Positions 31,536-46,272 of a stretch of 64,000 nt of DNA are shown piece after piece. The number at the start of each line of letters is the position of its first letter. Within the stretch, counting starts at the first letter, position 1. The stretch spans positions 21,948,001 through 22,012,000 of the forward strand of contig OZ024761.1 of assembly GCA_964016885.1 (NCBI GenBank). The letters run 5' to 3'. Made by a program: the position numbers and the translations under genes. Origin of the DNA: Eledone cirrhosa. Its lineage: Eukaryota. The notes under the pieces are model-generated. The model searched no databases. It saw nothing but the letters and a program-made list of their open reading frames with translations, and was not told where the DNA came from.

Positions 31536-31704
31536 AAGAACCAGATGGACCATAACGCACCAAAGTACTCAATACTAAGGGTAGTAGAGTGGGTAATAGG
31601 AAAAAGTATGACCCCGACGGCAGAGCTCAAGCCGTTTTGACTGGGTCCAGAAATAGCCGTCGAAACGGCTTGAGCTCTGCTGTCGGGGTCATACTTTTTC
31701 CTAT
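31536..31704 (+). repeat. Leader plus foldback hairpin element, copy A (46-bp stem 31596-31641/31659-31704, 17-nt loop)
   Basis: The arms are reverse complements except at 2 positions, both G.U on the + strand; leader ggaccataacgcaccaaagtactcaatactaagggtagtagagtgggta. Confidence 0.9.
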
Positions 31705-32429
31705 ATGTATATATGTGTGTGTGTCCGTATGTACATATAATGTATATTTCCGCCTCTCCCTCTCTCTCCCACTATATATATATATATATGTATGTGTGTG
31801 TGTGTGTGTGAAGGGATGTAATGGATTAAGTGTATTTCCACTCTTGCTTCCCTCCTAGTCTTATAGTCAGTCACATAAATTTTTCTTATTCACCGCAGGC
31901 ACGGCCGACCGACAATGGTGCCTCTCTCTCTATCATTTCCTTCGTTCGTGTCTATTTATTCACCCCAGATTTTTTCTTTCTTCTCTCTCTTCTGAAAATC
32001 TGTTCGTGTGTCGGCGGCAGTTCCGTGATCTCTCTCTCTCTCTCTCTCTCCCTCTCTCTCTCTGCACGAAAGATCTCTTAATGTGGAAGTTGGGAATATT
32101 TATATTAACAATTTCACTTATCTTAGCATTCATTACCAAAAGGGTAACCGAACGTACCCCCACCCCCCATCTCTCTCCCTCCTCTTCATGAAGAATAATA
32201 AGGTGGTAGGGACTTCGAAGTTTATGTTTCTATATAGTGATTTGTACATCGGGTACTATCTACCCTCAATTCTCGTCTTCCTGGTCCACCCACCGTCGAC
32301 ACCCTATATGCATCTACCCACTTCAGGGATAACTGAACCTGATTTTTCTCGACTTTTTATTATTCTCACTTGTGTTGGGACGTACACATTGTGCAAATAA
32401 TCCCATGCCAACCGCTATACATATATATC

Positions 32430-32598
32430 GGGCCCCGACGGCTGAGCTCTTACCGTTTCGCCAGCTAATTCCAGATTGGAATTAACTGTCGAAACGGCAA
32501 GAGCTCAGCCGTTGGGTCCCCCCGATTCTTTCTAATATAGTCACACTCTACTATCCCAACGATCGAGTACTCCGTTGAATAATGGTCCTACTAGTTTA
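32430..32598 (-). repeat. Leader plus foldback hairpin element, copy B (44-bp stem 32430-32473/32477-32520)
   Basis: 5 arm differences and a 3-nt loop; minus-strand leader ggaccattattcaacggagtactcgatcgttgggatagtagagtg. Confidence 0.85.
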
Positions 32599-33889
32599 AT
32601 ACTGGTAGATATATATCTACAGACACACTTACATATATATATCTATATACAGACACACTTACATATATATATATACACACACAGACACAAGCGCGCACAC
32701 ATTGTATTCTGGTGGGTGGGTGTGTCGTATTTGATACACTCAGTCACTTCACTCCTGTGTGCAATGGAGGAAGTATCGCCTGGCTGATGTTGGCTGCCTT
32801 TTTCTACCACAAACACACCACCTTCACCACCACCAATACCACACCACCACACCATACACACGAATGACGTTTCTTCTTACTATTCAACTGTCGGAATGTA
32901 CGCCAACCACTTTACTTATTCTCTCCATCTTACCATTCACCACCACCATATCTATTACATACACTACACCCTACCCACCACCACCACCGCTCTCTCTCCC
33001 ACATATTTACAGACACCGAGACGTGTTGTTGCTGTTATTGTTGCTGCTTCTATTGTATCTTGTTCACTATGTCGCCGTTGTTACAAATCAACTTTTCAAA
33101 CAGACGTTTTGTAAATAAATATTCACATTTCAGCTTCTTTAAAAAAAAAAGATTAAAAAACATTTTGTTTGTTTGTTTGTTACGCTACTTGATATAAGGA
33201 AATGGTTGTTTGCTTGTCTATATTATATGTATCCCGCCGAGGTTGACTTTGCCTTTCATCTTTACGGGGGTCGATAAAATAAAGTACCAGTAATGCACTG
33301 GGTAATTGATGGCCTTGTGCCAAAAAAAAGTAGAAACAATTTATACGTAGCAACAATATGTGGGTGGTGTGAACGGGGAGCGTGTTAGGGGGGGGGGATA
33401 CGTTGATGTTGTGACGGTCATGCCTTGCCAACTGATAGAAAGACATCTTGTTAGTGACGTAAGTGAAAATGTTTGGAATCCCCTCCTCCCCCCTCCCACC
33501 CAACTGGTTACCCTCTCTCCTTTGTTACCCCCTGTCATTAATAGGAAGATAGATTTCTTAAATAGGCAGATTTTAATGTTTGATATGTGGCAGGGTTAGA
33601 TACATACAACACAGACACGCAGGCTCACACGTAAATAAAAAGAAGTGTTTCTTAAATAGGCAGATCTAAAAGGTGAGAGGTTAAGAAGGGGGCAAAGATA
33701 CATATCTATATATATTGTTTAGGGATCAACTATTGACTCCTTGTAACTTTAAATTTGGAGTTTCTCCTTTATATCGACAGGGTCACCAGTCTCTCTCTCT
33801 CTCTCTCTCTCTCTCTCTCTCTCTCTCTCTCTCTCTCTCTCTCTCTCTCTATCTCTCTCTCTCTCTCTCTCTCTCTCTCTCTCTCTATA

Positions 33890-34100
33890 TATATATATAT
33901 ATTAATTCAAAATATTAACAAAATAGATATTCTTGTGATCAATTATATTTTATTATACATATTTCAGAGGTACTGAGTTAAGTTCAACAGTACGTCCTCA
34001 TCAGATAAAATAAGATGATGCATGACATACCCTGACATAGTAGATGGTTAAGATTCACTAATTCTTTGATGTATTCATTGAACCTTGTTTAACTTTTAAA
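33890..34100 (-). mobile_element. Short hammerhead-bearing repeat (pLTR/retrozyme-like) between (CT)n and (TA)n tracts, copy 1
   Basis: Colinear with 37290-37562: attaattcaaaatattaa ... hammerhead ... gacatacc ... gatggtt ... tgaaccttgtttaactttt. Confidence 0.65.
33946..34012 (-). ncRNA. Type I minimal hammerhead ribozyme motif, apparently intact
   Basis: Minus strand reads tattttat-CTGATGA-ggacgtactg-ttgaacttaact-cagtacctct-GAAA-tatgta-TA-ataaaata. This gives an 8-bp stem I, the full core, a 10-position stem II (one C.C, one G.U), a very short stem III and an AUA cleavage triplet. Confidence 0.8.
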
Positions 34101-43795: not shown

Positions 43796-44607
43796 CCATA
43801 GGTAGTGTCTTGAATTAGAAATATGGTAATGAAAGGGTTAATGCCATAGGTAGTGTCTTGAATTAGAAATATGGTAATGAAAGGGTTAATGCCATAGGTA
43901 GTGTCTTGAATTAGAAATATGGTAATGAAAGGGTTAATGCCATAGGTAGTGTCTTGAATTAGAAATATGGTAATGAAAGGGTTAATGCCATAGGTAGTGT
44001 CTTGAATTAGAAATATGGTAATGAAAGGGTTAATGCCATAGGTAGTGTCTTGAATTAGAAATATGGTAATGAAAGGGTTAATGCCATAGGTAGTGTCTTG
44101 AATTAGAAATATGGTAATGAAAGGGTTAATGCCATAGGTAGTGTCTTGAATTAGAAATATGGTAATGAAAGGGTTAATGCCATAGGTAGTGTCTTGAATT
44201 AGAAATATGGTAATGAAAGGGTTAATGCCATAGGTAGTGTCTTGAATTAGAAATATGGTAATTGAAAGGGTTAATGCCATAGGTAGTGTCTTGAATTAGA
44301 AATATGGTAATGAAAGGGTTAATGCCATAGGTAGTGTCTTGAATTAGAAATATGGTAATGAAAGGGTTAATGCCATAGGTAGTGTCTTGAATTAGAAATA
44401 TGGTAATGAAAGGGGTTAATGCCATAGGTAGTGTCTTGAATTAGAAATATGGTAATGAAAGGGTTAATGCCATAGGTAGTGTCTTGAATTAGAAATATGG
44501 TAATGAAAGGGTTAATGCCATAGGTAGTGTCTTGAATTAGAAATATGTAATGAAAGGGTTAATGCCATAGGTAGTGTCTTGAATTAGAAATATGGTAATG
44601 AAAGGGT
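43796..44607 (-). repeat. 48-bp minisatellite (~17 units), inverted relative to 2413-3512
   Basis: Minus-strand unit attaaccctttcattaccatatttctaattcaagacactacctatggc; 5 of 48 positions differ from the 2413 unit. Confidence 0.92.
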
Positions 44608-44929
44608 CCGTTTCCATGCAGTGTGTATAGAGTCTGTTTTCCAGGCAGAGGAACATTTTTTTATTATCAGTCAGTTTCACTTCCTTGAATGCTGTTTTTC
44701 TTTTGTTTATTCTGTGTGTGTGTGTGTGTGTGTGTGTGTGTGTGTGAGAGAGAGAGAGAGAGAGAGAAGTTGTTGAACAGGTTTATATTTTTTTGTAGGA
44801 AACCTCTGGTGTACTATGCCACCTATGGAGGTGGTGTAGGTGGTGGTTCTGTTGCCTTGGTTACATCAAGAAATGTTGACAATTATTCAACTAGAAAACA
44901 ATGATCTTTTTGCAAACAGCAAGACTTAT

Positions 44930-45330
44930 GTGGTGTAGTGTGGTGGAGTGTAGGGTGGAGTGGTGGAGTGTAGGGTGGAGTGGTGTGGTGTAGTATAATA
45001 TAGTGTAGGGTGGAGTAGTGTGGTGTAGGTGGTGCAGTGGAGTGGTGTAGAGTGGTGTGGTGTAGGGTAGGGTGGTGTGGTGCAGTGTAGGGTGGTGTGG
45101 TGTGGTGTGGTGTGGTGCAGTGCAGTGCAGTGTAGTGTAGTGTAGGGTGGAGTGGTGTGGTGTAGGGTAGGGTGGTGTGGTGCAGTGTAGGGTGGTGTGG
45201 TGTGGTGTGGTGTGGTGCAGTGCAGTGCAGTGTAGTGTAGTGTAGGTGGAGTGGTGTGGTGTAGGGTAGGGTGGTGTGGTGCGGTGTTAGGGTGGGTGTG
45301 GTGTAGGGTGTGTGTATGTGGTGTGGTGGA
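44930..45330 (+). repeat. Pentamer-based G-rich repeat (GTGTG/GTAGG/GTGCA)
   Basis: Direct inspection. Confidence 0.85.
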
Positions 45331-46080
45331 GACAATGTTATTCTGATATGTATGGTGGTTGATTGACAGAATCAGTGGAGCATCAGACAAAATACCTGTG
45401 GTATTTGTTCTGGCCCTTAGTATTCTGAGTTCAAATCCTGCCAAGGTAACTTTGTCTTTAATTCTTCCAAGGTCAATAAAATAAAGTAGCAGTCATGTAC
45501 TGGGTCAATATAATAGACTTTTCTAAACCCCCCCCCCCCCCCCCCCCCCCCCCTCTCCGCCCTCAACCTCCCCCCACTCCGCAATCAACAGTTGAGAGAC
45601 ACTATTAATTAGTGTCAAGGCAGTCACTCTTCTAACTAAACAACTACCTCGTTCATTTAATTAGAGTAATTAAAAAATATTTATAATTAATCATTTGTAT
45701 TATCTTCACACACACACACACACACCACACACACACACACACACACACACACACACACACACACACACACACACTGGCATGTCTTAGTGGTTCAGTGAAA
45801 ACAGGCATTGAGAAAATAAGTAGTGGGGTCAATATGATCAACTTAATCAAGTCCGTGCCCCAGCATGGCCACAGTGTAATGACCGAAAGCAGTAGAAGAA
45901 AATAAATGAATATTTTATACATGGTGTGGCTGTGGTCTAGGACCAAGAAGACCAGAGTTAGCTACAGAGGCTCCCTATATATCTACTGAGTGGCCTCCTT
46001 TATTTTAACTAACCCACTGGGTCATTGACGGTGACCAATGTTTCTGGGACATTGGAAACCGAGAGGGTCATATATATATA

Positions 46081-46272
46081 AAACGAAGGAAGTGTGGTAA
46101 GGAACTAGGTGGACCATAACACACCAGAGTACTCGATACTTTTGAGTAGTAGAGTGGGTAATAGGAATAGAGTGAGGACCCCGACTGCTGAGCTCCGCTG
46201 TTTCGACAGTTCTGAACACTAGCTGTCGAACCGGTCAGAGTTCAGCCATCGGGGTCCTGACTCTTTTCCTAT
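46081..46272 (+). repeat. Leader plus foldback hairpin element, copy C (hairpin 46161-46272)
   Basis: Leader ggaccataacacaccagagtactcgatact...gagtagtagagtgggta, then ataggaa...gaccccgac...tttcgacag / ctgtcgaa...tcggggtc...ttcctat; (TA)n on both sides. Confidence 0.85.

Follow-up and report, generated by a model that had tools for sequence, protein, structure and literature searches.

Three foldback repeats in a 64,000-nt stretch of the Eledone cirrhosa genome (assembly GCA_964016885.1, contig OZ024761.1, positions 21,948,001 to 22,012,000, forward strand; hereafter the window) are very probably the shortest insertion products of a Penelope-like element (PLE) of the Hydra clade, each made of two 5'-truncated copies of the element's end set head to head in a (TA)n tract. 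Judged from its sequence, the GAAA-stem III-GUC segment carried by the hairpin arms is the 3' half of a type I hammerhead ribozyme that longer copies carry in full, as the original prediction had suspected. The hairpins as posed are explained by a known system, and what is new is a handle on PLE ribozyme activity in vivo. We give roughly even chances to the broader proposal that PLE RNA ends are recorded in the genome: most insertions would be strong-stop-like cDNA pairs made off an RNA 5' end inside stem II, and a minor class would be made off the ribozyme cut, such that a mostly U3-A8 hammerhead cleaves in vivo and its 3' product is reverse-transcribed.

BLAST and folding recovered all three copies where they had been predicted (A, 31534-31704; B, approximately 32428-32602; C, approximately 46078-46272; Table 1), with pairwise E values of 3e-27 (A-C), 3e-15 (B-C) and 3e-8 (A-B) and no fourth copy in the window by BLAST. 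The anticipated stems of 44-50 bp correspond to an ungapped stem of ~50 bp with three mismatches in A and one of 44 bp with five in B; folding of C gives an interrupted stem comparable to both. Compensated stem differences between A and B are present in the sequence, and CUGANGA is absent from all three copies, both as first reported. Two points required revision: the element's sense strand is the opposite of the one first read, making the shared "leader" a 3' tail, and this leader, initially put at ~60 nt, measures ~80 nt in intact copies (copy A lacks its outer ~16 nt). The GAAA-stem III-GUC motif was likewise found, but not intact in every arm: GAAA is changed to AAAA in one arm of A and to GAAC in one arm of C, and GUC to GUU in one arm of B, a loss of GAAA or GUC in three of six window arms. 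The window copies would be unable to form a hammerhead because they begin inside stem II.

These hairpins are not chance structures. Three first-look searches of the genome returned 2581, 3024 and 3987 candidates, and the 29 elements found in 599,400 random bases give an estimate of ~145,000 copies (95% interval 97,000-208,000). Most are ~200-bp stubs. The intact layout is (TA)n, ~80-nt leader, ~60-nt arm, variable tip, inverted arm and (TA)n, and copies fall into subfamilies A1, A2, A3, B, C and D, with the two arms of a copy varying together. At one place (L029/L030), two near-identical short hairpin copies stand in direct tandem, 224 bp apart, with only (TA)n between them. Counts of unselected elements below refer to 63 that were not picked by any query (the 29 from random stretches plus 34 bystanders), with 99 arms; 36 of the 63 are inverted pairs.

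Each of these 36 pairs has exactly one tail, and 62 of the 72 pair ends adjoin TA repeats against a background of 8.8%, in keeping with the (TA)n insertion of Hydra-clade elements. Numbering from the predicted hammerhead cut site as 0 (minus upstream, plus downstream), 3' ends are fixed at two points, +19/21 in tail-less arms or about +98 (+98 to +113). The longer arm is the tail-less one in 18 pairs and the tailed one in nine, with both equal in nine, and the tips are copy-specific (all 11 that were parsed differ). Snap-back of a single cDNA was rejected as insufficient, because either arm may be the longer, including the tail-less arm in half of the pairs. By analogy with an anole PLE studied in vitro, the element's enzyme would instead cut both target strands in (TA)n and copy its RNA from two internal start sites, one per strand, until the RNA end is reached, leaving 5'-truncated arms; the two cDNAs would then be joined end to end into a head-to-head pair, presumably by end-joining. 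Both arms would copy one template segment, which accounts for their compensated differences; homogenisation of the arms after insertion, raised earlier as a cause, is not needed and found no support. Non-CpG variants common to both arms number 26, versus ~5.6 after partner shuffling (63 pairs, four subfamilies). Two observations sit less easily with paired insertion: 27 of the 63 unselected elements are single arms, and only A1 exceeds all of its shuffles, single shuffles equalling or exceeding the observed value in A2, A3 and C.

We sought the parent through copies with long tips (1161 elements with loops of 18-48 nt). The 50 of these that were listed carry templated inserts, poly(A)/poly(T) runs and one common extension. 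This extension, upstream of the arm, has 2077 matches genome-wide, and most of the 30 loci read run into one common sequence, 5'-truncated at variable points and reaching >1.5 kb. Locus L206 consists of (TA)n, tail, inverted copy, junction, a ~2.5-kb sense copy without tail, and (TA)n, and encodes a reverse transcriptase (RT) and a GIY-YIG domain; L207 has a similar layout and the same coding sequences. In L208, arm and tail sit in a pseudo-long terminal repeat (pLTR) and run on through the 5' untranslated region (UTR) to the ATG. A ~3.54-kb tandem array (L378-L380) holds intact open reading frames (ORFs) of 719 and 717 aa, with one end of the array tailed and the other closed by an inverted tail-less copy. 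These loci combine a single ORF bearing RT plus GIY-YIG at its C terminus, as in endonuclease-bearing (EN+) PLEs, with the partial tandems serving as pLTRs, inverted 5'-truncated copies and one-end tail of such elements. The option given in the original prediction that the hairpins are inverted partial pLTRs of a PLE is supported by this RT/GIY-YIG parent, the kind of autonomous partner that it had proposed to look for.

The 719-aa ORF (L378) contains YRDD and VIY..YIG and is 36-44% identical to 31 homologues of ~700 aa; 169 homologues were found. Its other motifs are RWR (position 37), DKT (117), CxCX5C (572), CxLC (670) and CxH (698). Across the ORF and the 31 homologues, DK[TS], YRDD and CxCX5C are present in 32/32, CxLC in 31/32, and RW[KR] and CxH in 30/32, and a CxxC inside GIY-YIG in 0/32. 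DKT with a CxCX5C linker, no CCHH, and CxxC and CxH around E/N is the Hydra-clade combination, and by eye the ORF fits the published Hydra alignment at motif level. On the strength of these motifs and the (TA)n target, the parent is placed as a Hydra-clade PLE, a new family within that known clade. Long copies of B and C/D are also tied to the same protein, with tblastn matches within 1.5 kb in 5 of 30 loci. Domain searches speak against the placement: Pfam gave no significant match on the intact L378 ORF, and PDB sequence searches with the ORF returned 0 matches. On L206, Pfam reported GIY-YIG only (E=0.069).

In the long copies, a stem I strand, a core and a long stem II precede the GAAA-stem III-GUC segment, and stems I-III are arranged around YUGANRA, GAAA and NUH as in type I hammerheads; this arrangement occurs in long copies only. 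The predicted ribozyme, ~190 nt upstream of the ATG, has a stem II of ~55 nt and a 5-bp stem III capped by a palindromic loop of 9 nt. Patterns built on the predicted hammerhead matched 159 times for B and C arms (0 for the control) and 2827 times for A3. The core is of CUGAUGA type in subfamily B, while C, A1 and A3 have mostly the compensated U3-A8 form UUGANAA: among loci chosen, for B/C/D and A3, with patterns demanding a core-like motif, the 3-8 pair is C3-G8 in 3/3 B and U3-A8 in 23/26 C/D and 12/12 A3 copies, and it is U3-A8 in 14/15 A1 copies. The A2 cores are mixed (12/32 U3-A8). In a 59-row alignment, 88.4% of cells are paired versus 23-52% in slid controls, and 7 of 19 pairs, the 3-8 pair included, show two-sided change, although kinship of the copies inflates such counts. 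Four B rows whose stem II is out of register and three poorly placed window rows stayed in this alignment, and 4 of 30 A loci truncated upstream were omitted.

The expectation that non-inverted relatives carry CUGANGA upstream of the arm therefore held for B (CUGAUGA) but not for the A types, with their U3-A8 core and ~55-nt stem II. These two features also explain why both CTGANGA searches missed the A-type ribozyme: CTGANGA 6-36 nt from GAAACGGCTT gave 68 heterogeneous one-off matches (0 of 30 inspected were hammerheads), and CTGANGA immediately before stem II gave 0. Three results weaken the case for a functional fold: C3 and A8 are left unpaired in 19 of 32 A2 cores, minimum-energy folding gives the hammerhead for only one of six copies, and Rfam hammerhead models gave no hit at threshold on the window copies or L206-L208. 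A type II hammerhead drawn from CUGGUGA-like letters in the tail was dropped, as by eye it has no stem I.

The 5' ends of arms accumulate at two places. At the major one, 48 of the 99 unselected arms end at -45 to -36, or 36-45 nt upstream of the cut, with a mode at -41 on T(C/T)AGT, a motif kept in all five reference copies. Position -41 is likely the 5' end of the RNA template. An RNA end at this point, inside stem II, would leave the 5' ribozyme copy disarmed. Our best guess, tentative and with slightly less than even confidence, is that -41 is a transcription start; processing by a nuclease, or a block that depends on protein, ranks behind it. T(C/T)AGT resembles an initiator (Inr), and by eye no downstream promoter element (DPE)-like motif was seen at +28..32. 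The Penelope element of D. virilis has an internal promoter of Inr/DPE type (PMC2377424). An RT block intrinsic to the sequence is unlikely at -41, since all 15 long copies that cross this position in the upstream pLTR ran on (P~5e-5 at a 48% stop rate), and a splice acceptor at the conserved AG was rejected, the AG being kept in 46 of 60 arms. The long copies also tell against a start at -41: of the 21 A2 copies that are near full length and extend into the upstream pLTR, none begins there and 15 run past -100, while a test for cap-derived G at arm ends is confounded by the opposite arm. A simple model in which the transcript starts at -41 consequently works only with templates that are multimeric or circular, or with strand transfer; multimeric templates may explain the run-through copies, and tandem arrays exist.

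The minor accumulation lies at the cut itself. Of 212 A2 mini-copies, whose arms measure less than ~35 nt, 100 were listed and scored by eye. The longer arm stops precisely at the cut in 49 of these (21 of them with both arms there), reads beyond it in 21 and is trimmed short of it in 30. A script applied to the first 40 found the longest arm ending exactly at 0 in 20. The simplest reading, which we consider probable, is that ends at 0 come from ribozyme-cut RNA, and this class, as read from genomic copies, suggests cleavage in vivo. Its rarity is a point against this reading: only 2 of the 99 unselected arms end at 0, and 0 of 44 in the purely random sample. Alternatively, though we think it somewhat unlikely, such ends may reflect an RT that stalls on reaching the base of stem III, or a hairpin centre lost afterwards by deletion at a DNA branch point or G/C-run boundary. 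Stem III does start two bases from the cut, GGGG/CCCC gives microhomology, and by eye 30 of the 100 listed mini-copies are trimmed inside +1 to +6. Furthermore, for the Poseidon PLE of Anolis carolinensis (PAc), no RNA-seq reads ending at the cut were seen (PMC11167929), whereas genomic copies of the Eledone element do end there. However, in the 40 mini-copies the peak falls at 0 (26 arms) rather than -1 (5 arms), and in six of the 40 the two arms both stop at 0 with unrelated inserts between them. Among long copies, L228 and L246 begin at +2, and one arm of L255 ends at 0.

The preponderance of short copies (an arm extends beyond -80 in only 3 of 63 unselected elements) could also mean that the stubs, having begun as PLE truncations, now propagate themselves as a family resembling short interspersed nuclear elements (SINEs) or retrozymes, with transcription starting at -41 and the PLE protein providing mobility in trans. 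That long copies do not stop at -41 fits this idea, as the short class may derive from a different RNA pool. We nevertheless judge it unlikely: independent propagation is not required because every arm variant tested has long relatives (the extension matches for A1/A2 and the hammerhead-pattern matches for B/C/D and A3 given above), tips are not inherited, and no tandem array of the short unit was seen beyond the two-copy L029/L030.

Highly improbable is the earlier suggestion that each arm is part of a split ribozyme which a second RNA would complete in trans. Although the arms keep GAAA, stem III and GUC, with a palindromic stem III loop, the half ribozyme is a mere remainder of truncation in stem II, each half would be locked in a 45-60 bp duplex in a read-through transcript, and the window arms that have lost GAAA or GUC are also at odds with it; trans completion was neither needed nor supported, and the same applies to branched DNA hairpins of an unrecognised mobile element. 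Scarcely credible is a DNA element, either a miniature inverted-repeat transposable element (MITE) or a Helitron-like one of the rolling-circle kind, with inverted repeats in terminal or subterminal position and stems matched by gene conversion, for which small size, high copy number, a long inverted repeat and TA context could be cited, but which the RT/GIY-YIG parent already contradicts: in place of fixed terminal inverted repeats, a target-site duplication (unreadable here because the target is (TA)n) and a transposase partner (none seen), we found an inverted repeat varying from 19 bp to >1.5 kb and reaching into an RT-coding element, and a one-sided tail that runs on into the PLE 5' UTR.

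Placement among PLEs follows the architecture described in PMC8557442, whose Hydra clade includes Hydra-1_Obim of Octopus bimaculoides. Shared with the Hydra clade are a single ~700-aa ORF with C-terminal GIY-YIG, DKT, CxCX5C, no CCHH, and CxxC and CxH, as well as the (TA)n target, a hammerhead near the 3' end, partial tandems, an inverted 5'-truncated copy and a one-end tail. The Eledone element differs from Hydra-1_Obim in protein and hammerhead (compared by eye) and from the clade in its unit (~3.5 kb versus <3 kb), tail (~80 nt versus 30-40) and RWR in place of RWK; its ~55-nt stem II, 5-bp stem III with 9-nt palindromic loop, mostly U3-A8 core and predominance of ~200-bp stubs are further distinctions. 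PAc, of another clade, has in common with it the cutting and extension of both target strands, a hammerhead in the pLTR region, and two internal RT start sites whose interval equals the tail (PMC11167929), but the PAc hammerhead overlaps the ORF start rather than lying upstream of the ATG. Minimal hammerheads of the Cercyon PLE of Schistosoma mansoni show the same U3-A8 core covariation and also occur as opposite-strand pairs, 100-700 bp apart, as the motifs are paired here (PMC4209133). Those lack a stable stem III, unlike the Eledone ribozyme, which has both core types in one lineage. Non-LTR retrozymes are likewise short, ORF-less and pLTR-derived, but they are head-to-tail monomers with a whole hammerhead, whereas the Eledone stubs are head-to-head and without the 5' half (10.64898/2026.07.22.740005). 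The annotated repeats of Octopus vulgaris list Penelope families without such detail (PMC13282606). In the literature searched, in which subscription papers are thinly covered, we found no description of this hairpin family or of copies ending at a PLE hammerhead cut, and the family may be catalogued in Repbase or Dfam.

The function of PLE hammerheads is described as unclear in PMC8557442, and PMC11167929 reports cleavage to be dispensable in vitro, with no reads at the cut. If RNA ends are indeed recorded in the genome, they would provide genomic evidence that a PLE hammerhead, largely U3-A8, cleaves in vivo. In the Eledone element, natural end-points number in the tens of thousands, young ORFs are intact and the core switches from C3-G8 to U3-A8 within one lineage, so that in vivo cutting by PLE hammerheads becomes testable by genome-wide counting and in vitro. 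Furthermore, the ~10^5 hairpins of 45-60 bp, which we regard as PLE debris, are potential double-stranded RNA substrates in the host and could be called MITEs or microRNA (miRNA) precursors by an automated pipeline (sub-threshold miRNA matches occur).

Table 1. Parts of hairpin copies A, B and C in the window, numbered relative to the predicted cut site (0)
Feature	Window position	Strand	Basis
Copy A (subfamily A1) tail, +20 to +82, outer ~16 nt missing	31534..31595	-	BLAST to natural long copy L176, 93% over 31534-31641
Copy A tailed arm, truncated at -26, GAAA to AAAA	31596..31641	-	Within the same 93% BLAST match to L176
Copy A tail-less arm, -40 to +19, stem III, ends in (TA)n	31645..31704	+	95% to L176
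Copy A tail-less arm, GAAA and predicted cut	GAAA 31662-31665; cut between 31684 and 31685	+	
Copy B (older subfamily B) tail-less arm, about -42 to +8	32428..32478	-	84% to natural long copy L265
Copy B tailed arm from about -37, plus tail	32477..32602	+	81% to L265 over 32477-32587; leader profile match to 32602
Copy C (subfamily C) tail and tailed arm, truncated near -26, starts in (TA)n	46078..46207	-	87% to a long copy
Copy C tail-less arm, -32 to +21, ends in (TA)n	46219..46272	+	87% to natural long copy L264

Other PLE-related sequences were encountered along the way. A first look for GIY-YIG across the genome gave 10,595 candidates, some in open frames of 800-1100 aa, representing many other PLE families, several of them possibly intact; a generic GIY-YIG pattern search gave 150 matches belonging to other families, with 0 of 30 loci examined tied to the element. 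A 323-aa ORF fragment (YRDD, CNC..CPL) between two A3 arms (L381:2291-3262, minus strand) is a second, more distant Hydra-type family. At the junction of a 20-kb tandem insertion (L379:8200-10000 and L380:1-245), a ~56-bp satellite of >30 units seems to have arisen by amplification of part of the element's ORF. Short TA-flanked repeats beside copies (flanks of L004, L007, L008, L010, L015, L020, L021 and L028) are probably ends of other PLE families; one carries CTGATGA, and one (L149:652-699) is a distant relative of the hairpin.

Within the window, a near-perfect palindrome at 31297-31418, with ~55-bp arms centred on TA/CA repeats, lies 115 nt from copy A; it has no BLAST relation to the hairpin family and gave sub-threshold miRNA matches. 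Two pairs of widely separated tandem arrays are also present: related 48-bp units at 2413-3495 and 43795-44607, mutually inverted, and related 72-bp units at 9179-9758 and 60628-61575, in direct orientation.

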